Shown here: positions 16,606 to 52,051 of the stretch, one piece after another
How positions within the stretch are numbered: the stretch's first letter is position 1
Layout of the letters: each line of letters starts with the position of its first letter
Source of the DNA: Escherichia phage vB_EcoM-S1P5QW
Reading direction: 5' to 3' (one strand)
Sequence record: OL956808.1
DNA length: 64,000 bases
Program-made: the position numbers and the translations under genes
Notes under the pieces: generated by a model
Told to the model about the DNA's origin: nothing
Seen by the model: only the letters and a program-made list of their open reading frames with translations
Database searches by the model: none

Positions 16606-19746
<3,141 letters not shown>

Positions 19747-41912: not shown

Positions 41913-41985
41913 TGGGAATTAGCCAAGTTGGTAAGGCACTGGATTTTGATTCCAGGATGCAAAGGTTCGAGTCCTTTATTCCCAG
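41913..41985 (+). tRNA. tRNA-Gln (anticodon UUG); CCA not encoded
   Basis: Cloverleaf folded by hand: acceptor tgggaat/attccca, anticodon loop ttTTGat, T-loop ggttcgagtcc. Confidence 0.85.
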
Positions 41986-41986
41986 C

Positions 41987-42073
41987 GCGAGAATGGTCAA
42001 ATTGGTAAAGGCACAGCACTTAAAATGCTGCGGAATGATTTCCTTGTGGGTTCGAGTCCCACTTCTCGCACCA
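41987..42073 (+). tRNA. tRNA-Leu (anticodon UAA), type II
   Basis: Acceptor gcgagaa/ttctcgc, anticodon loop ctTAAaa, long variable arm, encoded CCA; abuts tRNA-Gln (dimeric precursor as in T4). Confidence 0.85.
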
Positions 42074-42078
42074 AATTT

Positions 42079-42152
<74 letters not shown>

Positions 42153-42198
42153 ATTTATGTCTCGTCGTGAGACGCTCAGTTCTTTATTAGGGACTGAT

Positions 42199-42807
42199 AT
42201 GCATTTTTATCTTTATAAAATAACAAATAAAATTAATAATAAAATTTATATTGGTGTGCATTCTACCGAAAATTTAGATGATGGATATATGGGTTCTGGT
42301 AAATTATTAAAAAGAGCCCAAGATAAATATGGTATAGAAAATTTTTCTAAAGAAATATTAGAGTATTTTGATGATAAAGAATCTATGCTTGAAGCCGAGA
42401 AAAATATTGTCACAGAAGAGTTTTTAAATAGACCAGATGTGTATAATTTAAAACTTGGAGGTGAAGGTGGATGGGATCATATAAATAATTATCCTATGAC
42501 AGATCAGCAACGCGAATTAATTTCATTGGGTGTTAAAAAGGCACATTCTAACGGAAAATTAAAAGGATGGTCTTCAAATGGATTAATGAAAAATGGCTTT
42601 GCTGGTAAAACTCATTCTCAAGAAGCTAAACGTAAAATAGCAAAAGCAAACGAAGCAAAAGTTTCTGCGAATGAAAGAAAAAGAAGAATAGAAATTTCTA
42701 AATTATATGATTTTTCTAAGCGGGGTGAATTATCTAAATATGCTAAGCATATTGGCGTAAGTCATACTCAAGCAAAAAGAATTCTAAATCAAATTAACAA
42801 TATATAA
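42199..42807 (+). CDS. segB: GIY-YIG homing endonuclease, SegB-like
   Basis: GIY-YIG signature FYLYKITNKINNKIYIGVH...YMGSG; track ORF (42157) begins just after tRNA-Gly, ATG at 42199 has an RBS; inside the tRNA cluster as T4 segB. Confidence 0.75.
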   Translation: MHFYLYKITNKINNKIYIGVHSTENLDDGYMGSGKLLKRAQDKYGIENFSKEILEYFDDKESMLEAEKNIVTEEFLNRPDVYNLKLGGEGGWDHINNYPMTDQQRELISLGVKKAHSNGKLKGWSSNGLMKNGFAGKTHSQEAKRKIAKANEAKVSANERKRRIEISKLYDFSKRGELSKYAKHIGVSHTQAKRILNQINNI

Positions 42808-42813
42808 ATATTT

Positions 42814-42903
42814 GGAGGCGTGGCAGAGTGGTTTAATGCACCGGTCTTGAAAACCGGCAGTCGCTCCGGCGACTCATAGGTTCAAATCCTATCGCCTCCG
42901 CCA
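42814..42903 (+). tRNA. tRNA-Ser (anticodon UGA), type II
   Basis: Acceptor ggaggcg/cgcctcc, anticodon loop ctTGAaa, long variable arm, encoded CCA. Confidence 0.85.
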
Positions 42904-42908
42904 GTTTT

Positions 42909-42984
42909 GCTGATTTAGCTCAGTAGGTAGAGCAACTCACTTGTAATGAGAAGGTCGGCGGTTCGATTCCGTCAATCAGCACCA
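42909..42984 (+). tRNA. tRNA-Thr (anticodon UGU)
   Basis: Acceptor gctgatt/aatcagc, anticodon loop ctTGTaa, T-loop ggttcgattcc, encoded CCA. Confidence 0.8.
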
Positions 42985-42985
42985 A

Positions 42986-43060
42986 GGCCCTGTAGCTGGA
43001 AGGTTCAAGCAAGCGACTCATAATCGCCAGATGGTGGTTCAATTCCACCCAGGGCCACCA
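42986..43060 (+). tRNA. tRNA with CAU anticodon (Ile2-type as in T4, or Met)
   Basis: Acceptor ggccctg/cagggcc, anticodon loop ctCATaa, encoded CCA. Confidence 0.75.
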
Positions 43061-43069
43061 AATTAATTT

Positions 43070-43156
43070 GGGGAGTTATCCCGTAGAGGTAGCGGTGTGG
43101 ACTGTAAATCCATTGTCATTGCGACTCGGGTGGTTCGACTCCATCACTCCCCACCA
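43070..43156 (+). tRNA. tRNA-Tyr (anticodon GUA), type II
   Basis: Acceptor ggggagt/actcccc, anticodon stem gtgga/tccat with loop ctGTAaa, long variable arm resembling E. coli tRNA-Tyr, encoded CCA. Confidence 0.7.
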
Positions 43157-43160
43157 ATTT

Positions 43161-43235
43161 GGATGTGTAGCTCAATGGCAGAGCGATCGCCTGTTAAGCG
43201 ATTGGTTATAGGTTCGAATCCTATCACTTCCGCCA
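43161..43235 (+). tRNA. tRNA-Asn (anticodon GUU)
   Basis: Anticodon stem atcgc/gcgat with loop ctGTTaa, T-loop ggttcgaatcc, encoded CCA; one U-U mismatch in acceptor stem. Confidence 0.7.
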
Positions 43236-43349
43236 AATTTGTGACAACTGTCACATTAATATCTACTTGACGCGATTATCGGGGTTGAACTGATCACTCT
43301 TCTCTTAATTTCGTGTGAAGACATCTTGATTGTTGGAGTAGGTATTAAT

Positions 43350-43425
43350 GTGGCCGTAGTTCAGTTGGTAGAACTCGAGATTGTGATTCTCGTAGTCATG
43401 GGTTCGACTCCCATCGGTCACCCCA
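43350..43425 (+). tRNA. tRNA-His (anticodon GUG)
   Basis: D-stem gttc/gaac, anticodon stem cgaga/tctcg with loop ttGTGat, T-loop ggttcgactcc, discriminator C and CCA; no encoded G-1. Confidence 0.7.
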
Positions 43426-43429
43426 ATTA

Positions 43430-43505
43430 CGGGGCATAGCTCAGAAGGAAGAGCAAGGACCTTCTAAGTCCTGGGTCGTAGGTTCGATCCCTACTGCCTC
43501 GACCA
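43430..43505 (+). tRNA. tRNA-Arg (anticodon UCU)
   Basis: Acceptor cggggca/tgcctcg, anticodon stem aggac/gtcct with loop ctTCTaa, encoded CCA. Confidence 0.8.
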
Positions 43506-43850
43506 AACAAGAAGCCGGGTCGCTACCGGTAAGTCGTCGGACTGATGTTCCCTGGGTAAGGACTGGCATTAACAAATCTTTACGATCGGTTAATGCCCCC
43601 TTACATCACAGCAGAAACGGCGCACCGAATTATCGATTCGAGGAAATATCTTTGCCGTAAGCCGAGTAGCGTTTTTGACGGAACGTTCGGATATGGTCGA
43701 GATATGGCCTTTTAAAATATTAAGTAGCGTCAACTGCTTAATAACCGGGTTCGAATCCCGGCGTTTCGTACAAACACTTGCCTTAGCAGGTGGAACCCCG
43801 ACAAGGTTGCCGCAAGGCTTAGCCCCGACCGAAAGGTTGGGGCTTTTTAG
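43506..43850 (+). ncRNA. stable small RNA region (T4 RNA C/D-like) ending at an intrinsic terminator
   Basis: 345 nt without a credible ORF right after tRNA-Arg; tRNA-like T-arm ccgggttcgaatcccgg at 43745-43763; ends with hairpin plus T-run 43822-43850; T4 has two stable RNAs here (recalled). Confidence 0.4.
43822..43850 (+). terminator. intrinsic terminator (copy 1)
   Basis: agccccgaccgaaaggttggggc + TTTTT; near-identical copy at 44377. Confidence 0.7.
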
Positions 43851-47363: not shown

Positions 47364-47848
47364 TTTTAAAAACTCGCTGGTATGATTTAGATGATGGGGA
47401 TGATGGCATTTCAGTTGATAGAGTTGACTGGAATGGCTGTTCCGAAGATATGAAAAATTTGCTGATTAGGGAGTTTAGAATGGGATATCAACCAGTTAAG
47501 CCATCTACTGCAACAGATGATAAATTCGTGTGTATTCATAATGGTCGCGCTAAATTAACGAACACTGATTGGTTCACAGATAAGATTATGATTCTGTGGT
47601 ATATTATTAGTTTTCCTGTGACATCATTTGTATTTTGCTTCTTTGGAGAAAGTCCAGTAGACAGAACGGGAGATTGGATTATTTTAACCATACTTGTTAA
47701 TATTTTTACAGCAGCAATATTATCTGGGATATGGTACACGTTCATTGAAATGCCATGGCGTTTACGTAGGCAGCAAAAGATTTTTGATGAAAAGAAATAT
47801 ACTCAAAATTTAAATAATTTTATCACCGAATGCAGGAAATTAAAATGA
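47360..47848 (+). CDS. membrane protein, FVxECRK-motif paralog
   Basis: 162 aa; hydrophobic segments; C-terminus NNFITECRKLK; ATGA overlap. Confidence 0.5.
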   Translation: MILKTRWYDLDDGDDGISVDRVDWNGCSEDMKNLLIREFRMGYQPVKPSTATDDKFVCIHNGRAKLTNTDWFTDKIMILWYIISFPVTSFVFCFFGESPVDRTGDWIILTILVNIFTAAILSGIWYTFIEMPWRLRRQQKIFDEKKYTQNLNNFITECRKLK

Positions 47849-48285
47849 AAACATTATCAGCTGGTATTATCTTTATGACAGAAGATAAAGATTTATTCAT
47901 GGGACGGGTTACTGGTTCTCGTAAGCCTGGAATGATGGCACATCGCTGGGATATTCCAAAAGGCCGTGTAGAAAATTCTGATTTGAGCGCACTAGATGCA
48001 GCACGAAGAGAATGCTTAGAAGAGACCGGTTTTAGCAATTATAATCCAGACCTTCTAGAAGACCTAGGTGTATTTAAATATTCTAGTAATAAAGACTTAC
48101 AGCTGTTTTATTATACGATTCCAGTAGAGCATGAGATGTTTAGAAATTGCCATTGCGAGTCTTATTTTGAAAATAAAGATGGTGTTATGATTCCAGAGAT
48201 GGATGCTTTTGCTCTTATTCCTCGTACTCAGTGGCAATATGTGATGGGTCCTTCACTTTACCGAATAATGAACAGCCTCTTTTAA
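47845..48285 (+). CDS. nudE: Nudix hydrolase NudE (e.1)
   Basis: Nudix box GRVENSDLSALDAARRECLEETGF; ATG at 47845 overlaps upstream stop (ATGA) and has aggaaa RBS; track start 47830 is an alternative. Confidence 0.8.
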   Translation: MKTLSAGIIFMTEDKDLFMGRVTGSRKPGMMAHRWDIPKGRVENSDLSALDAARRECLEETGFSNYNPDLLEDLGVFKYSSNKDLQLFYYTIPVEHEMFRNCHCESYFENKDGVMIPEMDAFALIPRTQWQYVMGPSLYRIMNSLF

Positions 48286-48816
<531 letters not shown>

Positions 48817-48820
48817 AGTT

Positions 48821-48850
48821 ATTTACTTTCTCCTAGAATTGTGATAGTAT
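48821..48850 (+). promoter_or_regulatory. candidate early promoter upstream of the IPIII-like gene
   Basis: -35-like ATTTAC and -10 gtgaTAGTAT. Confidence 0.4.
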
Positions 48851-48910
48851 ATTCACAGTTACTTGAAGAGATAAATTATTAATTAAAATATTTACATTTA
48901 AAGGATACAC

Positions 48911-49384
48911 ATGAAAACATATCAAGAATTTATTACTGAAGCAGCTATTAATTCTCAAATTATTGCTGAATCTTTTACTGATCTTTTGAAATTTAAAAAA
49001 GGACAGAAAATCACTGCTGTACTGGATGATGGTACAGAAGTTGAGATGGATGTACAGGGATATAATTATGCAGTAGATGGAAAACTGTATAATAAATCTC
49101 ATGCTAAATTTGATTCATTTGACGACTTTGTTAATACAGTTGAAGATGAAAAAACTCGTCGATCCATTGCAACAGGTGATGCTAAGGTTCTTATGGCACA
49201 TGGTCATGAACGTATTCGCGCTAAACAGAATAAAATGGGTGAAGATAATTTTGCATTAGTTGGTTATCAATCTGGTAAACAAACTTATGGCTATCAACGT
49301 ACTGCTACCATGTATAACAAAAATGGTAAAATTGCCTTTGTGAATAGTAAAGGTTCTATTCAGTACGTTAAATCGTTCAAATAA
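48911..49384 (+). CDS. internal protein (IPIII-like) with capsid targeting sequence
   Basis: 157 aa; N-terminus MKTYQEFITE-AA matches T4 CTS; adjacent to e as T4 ipIII; aagga RBS. Confidence 0.6.
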   Translation: MKTYQEFITEAAINSQIIAESFTDLLKFKKGQKITAVLDDGTEVEMDVQGYNYAVDGKLYNKSHAKFDSFDDFVNTVEDEKTRRSIATGDAKVLMAHGHERIRAKQNKMGEDNFALVGYQSGKQTYGYQRTATMYNKNGKIAFVNSKGSIQYVKSFK

Positions 49385-49537
49385 GCAAATAAGAAATATG
49401 GGAACAACCTGGACCTCATGATTCTGTGAGGGATTCCCGCCAACCTGTAATAAGGTCGAGCCCAAGTGCGGTAATGGGTAAATACAGAAATGGACAATTC
49501 ATGCGCCACGGAATGGCCCAAACCTAGAGAGAATAAA

Positions 49538-50077
49538 ATGAGAACATTTTTAACTGGTCCTTATCTATCCCTGATGAATGCTTTTACACACCATTCTGAT
49601 GCTAGAGTAGAAGAAATTTGTAAAAACGAATATATCCCGCCATTTGAAGAATTACTTAAACAGTATTGCACACTTCGACTAGATGGTGGACGTCAATCCG
49701 GTAAATCAATTGCTGTGACTAACTTTGCTGCTAATTGGTTGTATGATGGCGGAACAGTTATCGTTCTTTCTAATACTTCAGCTTACGCTAAAATTTCTGC
49801 AAATAACATTAAAAAGGAATTTTCGCGTTATTCTAATGATGATATACGTTTTCGTTTATTTACTGATTCTGTGCGCAGTTTTATTGGTAATAAAGGAAGC
49901 AAGTTCAGAGGTTTATCGCTTTCGCGAATTTTGTATATAATTGATGAGCCTGTCAAATCTCCTGATATGGATAAGATTTATAGTGTCCATATTGAGACTG
50001 TACACTACTGCTGTAATAGTAAATGTTGTATTGGTGGTATTACTCGTCCACAGTTTTTCGTAATCGGAATGCAATGA
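49538..50077 (+). CDS. small P-loop NTPase-like protein with Cys-rich C-terminus
   Basis: Track ORF (49490) over-extended; ATG at 49538 with RBS gives 179 aa; Walker A GGRQSGKS, Walker B-like ILYIIDEP, C-terminal HYCCNSKCC. Confidence 0.55.
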   Translation: MRTFLTGPYLSLMNAFTHHSDARVEEICKNEYIPPFEELLKQYCTLRLDGGRQSGKSIAVTNFAANWLYDGGTVIVLSNTSAYAKISANNIKKEFSRYSNDDIRFRLFTDSVRSFIGNKGSKFRGLSLSRILYIIDEPVKSPDMDKIYSVHIETVHYCCNSKCCIGGITRPQFFVIGMQ

Positions 50078-50403
50078 TGACAGACACTCAGCTTTTCGAA
50101 TATCTTTATTTTTCGCCAAAAACTATTAAAAATAAATTGGTGAATCATTTTGAAATTTTGGCAAATAACAACGTCTTGAGCGAATTTTATCCTAAGCAAT
50201 ACAAATTACAAAAAGGCGTATTCAAAGGATGCAGAGTTTTGTGTACTGCTCCTAATGCACGGCTAATGAATAAAATTCCATATTTTACCATGGAATTTAT
50301 TGATGGTCCTTTTAAAGGACTAATCACCCAAAGTTTAATGGCATATGATTCTGAGCCATTTTTAATTAAAGAACAATCTTGGATAAATTTATTTTCTAAT
50401 TGA
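50074..50403 (+). CDS. hypothetical protein
   Basis: Track ORF starts at non-ATG 50023; ATG at 50074 overlaps upstream stop (ATGA), 109 aa. Confidence 0.45.
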   Translation: MMTDTQLFEYLYFSPKTIKNKLVNHFEILANNNVLSEFYPKQYKLQKGVFKGCRVLCTAPNARLMNKIPYFTMEFIDGPFKGLITQSLMAYDSEPFLIKEQSWINLFSN

Positions 50404-50409
50404 GGTTAT

Positions 50410-50772
50410 ATGAAAGCATATCAAATTCTTGAAGGCACACATAAAGGTACTATTTATTTTGAAGATGGTATTCAAGCACGAATTATTGTCTCTAAAACCT
50501 TTAAAGAGGACTCTTTTGTAGACCCAGAAATTTTCTACGGTTTGCATGCCCGTGAAATTGAAATTGAGCCACAGCCTACAGTTAAAATTGAAGGTGGTCA
50601 ACACCTGAACGTTAACGTTCTGCGTCGTGAAACTCTGGAAGATGCAGTTAAGCATCCGGAAAAATATCCGCAGCTGACCATCCGTGTATCCGGTTATGCA
50701 GTTCGCTTTAACTCTCTGACTCCGGAACAGCAGCGCGACGTTATCGCTCGTACCTTTACTGAGAGTCTGTAA
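50410..50772 (+). CDS. autonomous glycyl radical cofactor, GrcA/YfiD-like
   Basis: 120 aa; C-terminal 60 aa contain glycyl-radical motif RVSGYAVRF and look identical to recalled E. coli GrcA C-terminus; 3' half has host-like GC-rich codons. Confidence 0.85.
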
Positions 50773-50993
50773 TGGCAAAGATAATTATTGAAGGTTCTAA
50801 AGATGTGCTAAATGCTTTCGCAGAATGGTTTAGTAATTCAGGCGAACAGCAATTTAATGAAGCCTGGAATATGGGTGATATTGATGGAATTTATCCTACG
50901 ACAGAAATTTCTGTTCAAGGATATGGCATTCATGAACCTATTCGTTTAGTTGAATATGATTTATGCACTGGTGAGGAAGTCAAATATGATTGA
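50772..50993 (+). CDS. hypothetical protein
   Basis: 73 aa; TAATG overlap with upstream gene. Confidence 0.45.
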   Translation: MAKIIIEGSKDVLNAFAEWFSNSGEQQFNEAWNMGDIDGIYPTTEISVQGYGIHEPIRLVEYDLCTGEEVKYD

Positions 50994-51252
50994 AGATATT
51001 AAAGGTTATAAGCCACATACCGACGAAAAAATCGGTAAAGTAAATGCTATTAAAGACGCTGAAGTTCGTTTAGGACTTATCTTTGATGCTTTATACGATG
51101 AATTTTGGGAAGCATTTGATAGCTGTGAAGATGATGAACTCGCGAAGAATTACGCCGAAAGCCTCGATCAGTTAACTATTGCTAAAACGAAACTCAAAGA
51201 AGCCAGTATGTGGGCTTGTCGTGCAGTGTTCCAACCAGAGGAAAAATATTAA
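50986..51252 (+). CDS. hypothetical protein
   Basis: Track ORF starts at TTG 50950; ATG at 50986 with gaggaag RBS gives 88 aa. Confidence 0.45.
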
Positions 51253-51530
51253 TGGCTCAATTAAGCGCAGGGTTTGGTTATGAGTATTATACTGCCCCTC
51301 GTCGTGTATCTGCCGCTCCTAAGAAAATTCAAAGTCTTGATGACTTCCAGGAAGTAGTCCGTAAAGCTTTCCAGGACTATGCACGTTATCTTAAAGAAGA
51401 TTCACAGGACTGTCTTGAAGAAGATGAAATTGCTTACTATGAGCAACGTCTTGAACAGCTTAAAAACCTACATGAGGTCCGTGCAGAAGTTTCAAAGTCT
51501 ATGAATAAATTGATTAGATTTAAAGAATAA
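51252..51530 (+). CDS. hypothetical protein
   Basis: Track ORF over-extended; ATG at 51252 overlaps upstream stop (TAATG), 92 aa. Confidence 0.45.
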
Positions 51531-51589: not shown

Positions 51590-52051
51590 ATGACTATCAA
51601 TACAGAAGTTTTTATCCGTCGAAATAAGCTTCGTCGTCACTTTGAGTCGGAGTTTCGTCAAATTAACAATGAGATTCGTGAGGCATCAAAAGCAGCAGGG
51701 GTCTCATCGTTTCATCTAAAATATTCTCAGCATCTTCTTGATCGTGCAATTCAACGGGAGATTGATGAGACATATGTTTTTGAATTATTCCATAAAATAA
51801 AAGACCATGTTTTAGAAGTTAATGAATTCCTGAGTATGCCTCCGCGTCCTGACATTGACGAGGATTTTATTGATGGGGTTGAATATCGTCCTGGACGTTT
51901 AGAAATCACAGATGGAAATCTTTGGCTTGGATTTACGGTTTGTAAGCCTAATGAGAAGTTCAAAAACCCGTCACTTCAATGCAGGATGGCAATTATCAAC
52001 AATCGTCGTTTACCAGGAAAGGCTTCTAAAGCAGTAATTAAAACTCAATGA
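51590..52051 (+). CDS. regB: RegB site-specific endoribonuclease
   Basis: 153 aa; MTINTEVFIRRNKLRRHFESEFRQ... matches recalled T4 RegB; own early promoter and gaggag RBS. Confidence 0.85.
   Translation: MTINTEVFIRRNKLRRHFESEFRQINNEIREASKAAGVSSFHLKYSQHLLDRAIQREIDETYVFELFHKIKDHVLEVNEFLSMPPRPDIDEDFIDGVEYRPGRLEITDGNLWLGFTVCKPNEKFKNPSLQCRMAIINNRRLPGKASKAVIKTQ

Follow-up and report, generated by a model that had tools for sequence, protein, structure and literature searches.

The early gene vs.8 of bacteriophage T4 was picked out when T4 proteins were screened with AlphaFold 3 against EcAvs2, a sensor of terminases (PMC13601566, Nat Commun, 3 Aug 2026), where it was termed an "uncharacterized ATPase-like protein" and a non-terminase activator of that sensor. 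Co-expression of vs.8 with EcAvs2 led to toxicity, Vs.8 and the T4 terminase ATPase were noted to be homologous, also in their Walker A and B motifs, and Vs.8 was modelled in the terminase pocket of EcAvs2 with a bridging ATP (interface predicted template modelling score, ipTM, 0.84). The authors left open what Vs.8 does natively and during infection, and suggested that such activators may be anti-defence proteins. Ksap1 and Ksap2 of the same study are likewise small, lineage-restricted phage proteins with a terminase-ATPase-like sheet, predicted in the Avs2 pocket; they are separate families according to that paper, and we liken them to Vs.8 by description only. Here we analyse a stretch of 64,000 nucleotides of Escherichia phage vB_EcoM-S1P5QW (OL956808.1), called the window below, in which the open reading frame (ORF) at 49538-50077 is the vs.8 ortholog and the block just upstream of it, 49400-49518, probably encodes a structured RNA. 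The protein part is already known, as T4 vs.8, the terminase-ATPase-like Avs2 activator.

For the upstream block, the closest described elements are the promoter-early stem-loop (PeSL) cassettes of T4-like phages, described by Krisch and colleagues and made of a stem-loop followed by an early promoter TTTACW-N17-TAYWAT, then a Shine-Dalgarno sequence and a start codon (PMC4122927), and the phage "theta" ribozymes of the hepatitis delta virus (HDV)-like type, which sit next to tRNAs (PMC10879173). A "promoter of vs.8" has also been cloned to drive genes (PMC13243611).

Vs.8 and its kinship to terminase ATPases

The protein features needed for the argument are as follows.
49538-50077, + strand: vs.8 ortholog, 179 aa, very probably a stand-alone terminase-type ATPase domain of the additional strand, catalytic E (ASCE) class (97.8% identity to T4 Vs.8; PHROG 1488; fold)
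50005-50040, + strand: codons for HYCCNSKCCIGG (residues 156-167), variable and poorly modelled
16609-18441, - strand: gp17, terminase large subunit (TerL), 610 aa, in the same window

The product, MRTFLTGP...FFVIGMQ, carries GGRQSGKS at residues 50-57, ILYIIDEP at residues 131-138 and HYCCNSKCCIGG at residues 156-167. The 179-aa frame with its Walker A and Walker B-like motifs was found on the + strand as the first-pass annotation had described it, and the view that it is a small P-loop NTPase among early genes is borne out, the Walker motifs being conserved in homologs. Identity to T4 Vs.8 (NP_049732) is 97.8% over 180 aa, and phrog_1488 matches with an E value of 4.1e-79, residues 3-179 covering profile positions 2-177 of 177. 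The ORF is the ortholog of the T4 early gene vs.8. That annotation held that its proposal would fall if the protein aligned to a T4 ORF of established function or if the Walker motifs were not kept in homologs; the protein does align to a known T4 ORF, but one without an established native function, and the motifs are conserved.

The AlphaFold2 model (predicted local distance difference test score, pLDDT, 81; predicted template modelling score, pTM, 0.82) has an ASCE fold that is superimposable on solved TerL ATPase domains. The TerL profile PHROG_2 matches residues 43-142 at 1e-5, and the profile alignment to the phage's own gp17 (E 0.0025) pairs GRQSGKS with SRQLGKT, KFRGLS with AVRGNS and IIDEP with YIDEC. 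Terminase features found in Vs.8 are the R52/Q53 signature (x-R-Q-x-G-K-[ST]), the R124-G125 element before Walker B, and D136-E137. General searches were less telling: Pfam Terminase_6N (PF03237) stayed below threshold (12.7 bits for a gathering cut-off of 22, E 0.099), the family profile had no significant match among PDB sequences (best E 0.07), NCBIfam gave no match, and among the PADLOC defence and anti-defence models only HerA came up, at a non-significant 10.8 bits (E 0.027). Similar small P-loop proteins were found in BFVD, in other T4-like phages and in jumbo phages.

Compared with TerL (T4 gp17 subdomain I, Terminase_6N), Vs.8 lacks both lid subdomain II and the C-terminal RNase-H-like nuclease, and it is a 179-aa early gene product whereas gp17 has 610 aa and is late. 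It ends at residue 179, after the fifth core strand, which in gp17 carries the coupling motif. Since the lid subdomain and the nuclease are absent, Vs.8 cannot, judging from its sequence, by itself be a packaging motor or translocate DNA.

By tblastn, Vs.8 occurs in 1009 phage records, starting with Tequatrovirus and reaching as low as 37% identity in T4-like phages of Klebsiella, Enterobacter, Serratia and Kosakonia. Just 50 relatives, of 57-259 aa and mostly 150-185 aa, were obtained in a profile search of 1.84 billion cluster representatives; on these comparisons the Vs.8 family is narrow and made up of small stand-alone proteins. In an alignment of 18 sequences reaching down to 41% identity (A1), D49-G-G-R-Q-S-G-K56, R113, R124, G125, E137 and P138 are invariant, as are an N-terminal YLxLMxAF and a C-terminal FFV.G.Q, the latter corresponding to a conserved strand, FFVIGMQ, at the end of the protein. 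Both Walker motifs are invariant over this whole range.

In a sub-branch of metagenome relatives (P0056, P0058, P0060 and P0066), the Walker A G-K-[ST] is replaced by G-H-[ST] and the Walker B D-E by D-[VCA]. These four may be non-catalytic relatives.

The Cys-rich segment and the question of a replacement

The first-pass annotation had taken Vs.8 for a new minimal ATPase which, with a metal-binding, Cys-rich tail, occupied the place of T4 ipII/denV as a host-takeover or anti-defence factor. The Cys/His cluster HYCCNSKCCIGG is real in this sequence, and denV is indeed absent, from this interval and, by tblastn, from the whole 64-kb window. The cluster, however, is no feature of the family. It falls in columns 170-190 of A1, the most variable ones, no Cys or His is found among the invariant or near-invariant columns, and the Cys residues are not kept in homologs below about 60% identity. 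The model is also poor there, with pLDDT below 50 at residues 161-168 and 45 for residues 161-170, and the sole Pfam match for the tail was a sub-threshold conotoxin. A zinc ribbon, or any other conserved metal-binding tail, was rejected on the grounds of these variable columns, the lack of conserved Cys/His and the low pLDDT.

Nor does Vs.8 stand in for ipII/denV, as T4 has its own vs.8, 97.8% identical, right after denV. The slot between e and vs.8, which holds ipIII-ipII-denV in T4, is filled in the window by Ip4 alone (48911-49384), so the annotation was right in seeing no denV and missed an internal protein (ip) gene. In NBEco003, a close relative, denV sits between e and Ip4. The "replacement" and "conserved metal tail" parts of this explanation are already refuted, and as a whole we find it hardly credible.

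What Vs.8 may do

It is very probable that Vs.8 consists of one RecA-like, terminase-type ATPase domain, made early, for which a counter-defence role can be proposed. It would bind ATP and probably hydrolyse it, possibly as an oligomer or together with Vs.7, and would be produced early from an mRNA with a folded 5' region. An anti-defence or immune-related role is plausible because vs.8 is toxic together with EcAvs2 (PMC13601566) and its neighbour vs.3 is TadIV-1, an anti-type-IV-Thoeris sponge (PMC13243611); to this extent the host-takeover or anti-defence idea holds, but not as a novelty replacing ipII/denV. Our committed guess, to which we give somewhat less than an even chance, is that the native role is early counter-defence or host interaction through likeness to TerL: ahead of the real terminase, its ATPase look-alike would engage TerL-directed host factors or sensors, and recognition by Avs2 would be a side effect or a host counter-adaptation. 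Two points weigh against this picture. Vs.8 activates EcAvs2 and does not block it, which speaks against a simple decoy, and the G-H-[ST] relatives without the Walker B Glu suggest that not every member of the wider family is catalytic.

Those distant relatives without the Walker A Lys and Walker B Glu, together with the missing lid and nuclease domains, would also fit Vs.8 being a terminase relic whose catalysis is unimportant, that is a structural mimic, a pseudo-enzyme or a gene being lost. Frameshifted or split copies point the same way: in T2, SV76 and Lutter tblastn recovers vs.8 in 2-3 pieces, with annotated fragments of 109-133 aa (P0018, P0023), so that laboratory or natural lineages can evidently lose the gene. 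Against this, no change is seen in Walker A, R124-G125 or D/E136-137 from Tequatrovirus to Karam-, Winkler-, Gapriver- and Slopek-type phages, and invariance of the nucleotide site at 37-45% identity implies purifying selection on that site. We therefore consider a relic unlikely, and retain the ATPase domain described above.

The start of vs.8

49526-49540, + strand: purine-rich, Shine-Dalgarno-like AGAGAGA and vs.8 ATG (49538), placed by sequence and by the family-wide start

Annotated lengths of Vs.8 differ, with 219 aa in T4, 195 aa in AR1 and 179 aa in NBEco003. The context of the ATG, M[RK]xFLT or MKYLT, is family-wide. In 37 loci (36 related ones plus the window), the frame upstream of this ATG is open for a median of 13 codons, and for at least 40 codons in only 2, T4 being one of them. 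The T4 protein NP_049732 is annotated from a GTG inside the upstream block, and its 40-aa N-terminal extension (64793-64912 in NC_000866, locus L002, equivalent to 49426-49537 in the window) reads through the structured RNA described below and is out of frame in the window. The 195-aa reading would start at 49490 in the window, and in AR1 this version uses yet another frame than T4's. By these comparisons the conserved Vs.8 reading is the 179 aa from 49538. As the frame of the extension is closed in 35 of 37 related loci, the T4 reference protein most likely starts 40 codons too early, its extension being an annotation artefact.

A structured RNA precedes vs.8 in T4-like phages

Just before vs.8 lie 125 GC-rich nt, in a genome that, going by T4's relatives, has about 35% GC. 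The conserved block starts exactly after the denV stop in T4 and follows Ip4 in the window, so that it is kept whichever gene lies upstream. Its DNA sequence is retained in Dhaka-, Gapriver-, Karam- and Winklervirus, in which Vs.8 is only 40-60% identical, and in 31 of 35 IMG/VR loci one or both of its core sequence patterns were found no more than about 225 nt ahead of vs.8. Although the T4 record annotates it as an N-terminal extension of Vs.8, block 49400-49518 is, from the comparison of loci, non-coding, because the upstream frame is so seldom open. The proposed elements of the RNA, all on the + strand, are listed here.
49400-49487: 5' domain, a nested pseudoknot (DNA conservation; covariation; covariance model match; specificity of the pseudoknot partners)
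49400-04/49434-38: helix P1, 5 bp
49409-11/49485-87: pseudoknot between the P1 loop and the 3' tail
49414-17/49428-31: helix H2
49440-42/49475-77: helix P3, enclosing H4, H5 and an invariant GGUAA
49443-46/49453-56: helix H4 (ACCU-GUAAUA-AGGU), loop GUAAUA
49460-61/49468-69: helix H5
49470-74: conserved GGUAA
49490-49518: 3' module, made of a conserved AUGGAC (49490-95) and hairpin H6, GCCA-CGGAA-UGGC (49505-17), with GGA in its loop

The structure emerged only with a hand-curated alignment, followed by a covariance model. The fold of the single leader sequence was no better than those of shuffles (z 0.46), and RNAalifold on a plain MAFFT alignment gave 9 pairs only. The curated alignment holds 32 distinct T4-like copies, in which just three lineage-specific indels were placed by hand; its construction was guided by the structure, and the copies share ancestry, which must be kept in view when reading the following figures. 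In these copies 85.8% of cells are paired, compared to 71.9% in shuffles (0 of 500 as high), and the covariation score is 0.41, compared to 0.16. Changes on both sides were seen in 16 of the 25 pairs, and sliding the 3' partners by 1 to 3 columns brought pairing down to 30-55%. All 5 pairs of P1 and all 4 of P3 covary. The three core pairs of the pseudoknot are paired in 100% of copies with 2-3 pair types each, the partners being CUG/CAG, CCG/CGG, CCA/UGG or CUCGA/UCGAG. In an automated, unconstrained helix search against shuffled flanks, only P3 was discriminated (94% compared to 34% with at least 3 bp); the search space for P1 and the pseudoknot is too large in that test, which is not evidence for either of them.

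The 3' module is present in a single copy in the window. Across T4-like phages its first part reads A(U/A)GGAC and the H6 consensus is GCCA-NGGAA-UGGC, the stem being kept through the compensatory variants GGCA/UGCC, GACA/UGUC and CAGCA/UGCUG. In 38 of the 42 listed loci this stem begins 29-42 nt ahead of the start codon. The twin GGA motifs and the purine-rich Shine-Dalgarno sequence resemble leaders regulated by CsrA. The loop and stem of H4, GUAACAAGGU (GUAAUAAGGU in the window, 49447-49456), appear identical to the universally conserved 16S rRNA segment around positions 1497-1506, a likeness that may be coincidence or mimicry.

The arrangement varies in some relatives. In two Klebsiella-type T4-like loci of IMG/VR (L054 and L068, motif +1 to +500), the full element, GGA hairpin included, precedes an inserted ip gene (MKTYKEFITEAK...), and a second copy of H6 only lies before vs.8. 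By its layout this looks like insertion of a cassette by recombination at the hairpin, in the manner of PeSL.

In Karamvirus-type loci (L018, L029, L040 and L005), tandem 5' domains of two subtypes, L017-like and L034-like, were seen about 100-290 nt upstream of vs.8, followed by one GGA hairpin. Such tandem domains, found in three phages, recall tandem riboswitch aptamers.

The RNA motif outside the T4-like phages

BLAST with the block matched unrelated phages, namely Vequintavirus naswa and the 45-kb phage Ivi. With a degenerate core pattern, 61 loci were then obtained in IMG/VR, of which some two dozen belong to non-T4 contigs 17-360 kb long. The covariance model, built from the T4-like alignment only, found full-length matches in all of those non-T4 loci (E 3e-5 to 4e-12), exactly one match in the window (49397-49488, 81 bits), and none in two spurious pattern matches, L051 and L057. 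In the non-T4 alignment, 89.6% of cells pair, compared to 65.7% in shuffles (0 of 500), covariation is 0.47 compared to 0.11, and slid partners pair at 46% at most. Pairing in P1 reaches 96.9%, and each of its positions shows 4-5 pair types. The two strands of the pseudoknot co-vary as well (CGGA/UCCG, UCCGG/CCGGA, CCAG/CUGG, GGGUA/UACCC, GGGAG/CUCCC, ACCG/CGGU, ACCAA/UUGGU), and at least 4 Watson-Crick pairs are formed with the copy's own partner in 63% of copies, compared to 22% for swapped partners. The element spans 80-110 nt around an invariant core, CCUGUARNAAGGYC-N-AG...CGGUAA, and H2 is optional, being absent from the L089, L091, L095, L098 and L104 copies.

Its carriers include Straboviridae, Vequintavirinae, a 360-kb jumbo contig and contigs of 17-92 kb, with copies at L085:1169-1256, L086:1167-1243, L105:6666-6753, L088:12902-12981 (-) and about 20 other loci. 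Outside the T4-like phages most copies sit within clusters of tRNA genes. Same-strand tRNA genes lie within about 0-1000 nt of the motif in 18 of the 25 non-T4 loci; the motif starts 3 nt after tRNA-Ser in L105, where an intrinsic terminator follows, and 20 nt after tRNA-Glu in L088. The window has its own tRNA cluster on the same strand (41913-43771), 5.6 kb upstream of the motif. No relevant match was found in Rfam 15, with E up to 5, for the window region, 8 T4-like loci and 3 non-T4 loci, nor was the core sequence found in the literature searched. The Ivi-type element found nothing in BLAST against 5,426 complete E. coli genomes, so in E. coli the motif does not seem to be carried by prophages.

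On this evidence we hold it somewhat probable that the block is one copy of a class of structured RNA not described in the sources searched, spread in unrelated virulent phages and linked to tRNA clusters outside the T4-like ones. In T4-like phages it would have been fused to a hairpin with a GGA loop and would serve as leader for vs.8 or for an ip gene. Its candidate roles are a stable RNA that acts in trans and has to do with tRNA biology or evasion of defence, a leader that gates the early vs.8-vs.3 anti-defence operon by sensing a ligand or protein, or a protective structure of 3' ends.

The presence of a folded leader raises the question of whether Vs.8 might be a helicase-like RecA1 module acting on RNA, possibly its own leader, as an autoregulator or RNA chaperone. 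The protein has no helicase motifs Ia, Ib, II (DEAD) or III and no second RecA domain, and its signature is of the terminase type (RQxGK[ST], RG...DE). Moreover, the RNA motif occurs in many phages in tRNA clusters, with no vs.8 found by tblastn up to 1.2 kb downstream in L045, the single non-T4 locus for which this was checked, and in some T4-like phages it precedes an ip gene and not vs.8. Such a role is very unlikely, and the terminase-type reading of Vs.8 is kept.

Comparison with PeSL cassettes and HDV-like ribozymes

The block resembles PeSL (PMC2839356, PMC4122927) in its intergenic position within a hyperplastic region, in the stem-loops that in some clades lie upstream of a promoter-like TTTAC...TAYWAT, and in its link to the swapping of ip genes, with duplication of the 3' hairpin upon ip insertion. 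It differs in that PeSL is a single short stem-loop with a promoter, whereas the element here is a multi-helix pseudoknot of about 90 nt with invariant loops, is unique in the window, is present in non-T4 tRNA clusters and has no -35 in T4 or in the window.

These likenesses bear on the alternative that there is no RNA structure at all, the block being either the coding N-terminus of Vs.8, as the GTG start of T4 NP_049732 would have it, or a recombination cassette of the PeSL promoter/terminator type that works as DNA. Long-type copies do hold GTTTAC, which is the T4/PST PeSL -35 consensus TTTACW (PMC4122927), with a weak TAYTAT-like -10, the region has served as a "promoter of vs.8" (PMC13243611), and ip-gene insertions duplicate the hairpin. 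However, the window and T4 have TAAAT in place of the TTTAC -35, the -10 is not conserved across clades, and a GTTTAC-like segment is also found in L105 (GGGGTTTAATTCGGT), 3 nt after a tRNA and ahead of a terminator. A scan for promoter and terminator consensus sequences around the ORF stayed at chance level, and a "promoter" feature annotated in phage Lutter sits inside its split vs.8 and is uninformative. The rarely open frame (2 of 37 loci), the double compensatory changes in 16 of 25 pairs, and above all the recovery by a T4-only model of copies in unrelated phages, with P1 97% paired and 4-5 pair types per position, make this alternative distinctly improbable, and argue for the structured RNA.

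The strand order of the element, P1-P2-hairpin-P1'-domain-J-P2', a nested double pseudoknot, is that of HDV-like ribozymes; in the terms used here the strands run P1, PKa, H2, P1', P3 domain, J and PKb, with PKa and PKb as the two halves of the pseudoknot. The phage copies next to tRNA genes are a further likeness. P1 is here of 4-6 bp and not 7, with no G.U at the first pair, and there is no P1.1; the hairpin that takes the place of P3/L3 is of variable length and missing from L089-type copies; no conserved C precedes PKb in the T4/window type, whose J segment, UAAAUA, has no C. The Rfam ribozyme models gave no match to the element. An HDV-like ribozyme was rejected because of the short P1, the dispensable P3-equivalent hairpin and the lack of a candidate catalytic C in the T4-type J, and self-cleavage appears unlikely from the sequence.

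Gene order around vs.8

The window is a segment of a Tequatrovirus genome, in the orientation opposite to the T4 map. Its 48300-51300 region is 99% identical to Shigella phage Sf22 and 97-98% to AR1, RB18, RB32 and RB14. The neighbouring genes are the following.
47830-48285: nudE
48322-48816: e, lysozyme
48911-49384, + strand: Ip4, internal virion protein gene (DUF7412 6e-96; PHROG 3155; synteny)
50077-50403, + strand: vs.7, 108 aa (PHROG 2049; PF26834 from precomputed annotation)
50410-50772: vs.6, GrcA-like glycyl-radical cofactor (PF01228, 3e-18)
about 50957-51253: vs.4
about 51253-51530: vs.3
51590-52051: regB

The order is thus nudE, e, Ip4, vs.8, vs.7, vs.6/GrcA ... regB, where T4 has e-ipIII-ipII-denV-vs.8-vs.7-vs.6. 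Ip4 carries the capsid-targeting N-terminus MKTYQEFITEA. The order around vs.8 is the same in AR1 and T4, with vs.7, vs.6/GrcA and regB as neighbours, and the comparison with T4 between e and regB, which the first-pass annotation had proposed, shows the order vs.8, vs.7, vs.6, regB to be shared. Because the start of vs.7 overlaps the stop of vs.8, as ATGA (50074-50080), and a vs.7 homolog overlaps it by 1 or 4 nt (ATGA or TAATG) in 30 of the 37 loci, vs.7 is, as far as the sequence tells, translationally coupled to vs.8 in most relatives. The vs.7 homolog search gave 9 close matches only, a shallow set. In L026, L043 and L042, vs.7 is exchanged for a vs.5-like gene.

With vs.6, vs.4 and vs.3 downstream, of which vs.4 is presumably the anti-CBASS sponge Acb2, vs.8 therefore heads a gene block enriched in auxiliary and anti-defence genes.

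Significance

For the protein little changes: conservation of the catalytic site is confirmed and the idea of a metal-binding tail is removed. Two practical corrections follow for work on T4, that the 219-aa reference most likely begins 40 codons too early, and that cloning "vs.8 with its promoter" carries along a highly structured RNA. The most valuable outcome is this RNA itself (49400-49518), absent from Rfam and mis-annotated as coding in T4. If the proposed class holds true, it would be a widespread phage non-coding RNA linked to tRNA clusters, and in T4 a candidate control element for an operon with at least one proven immune-signal sponge, vs.3/TadIV-1.

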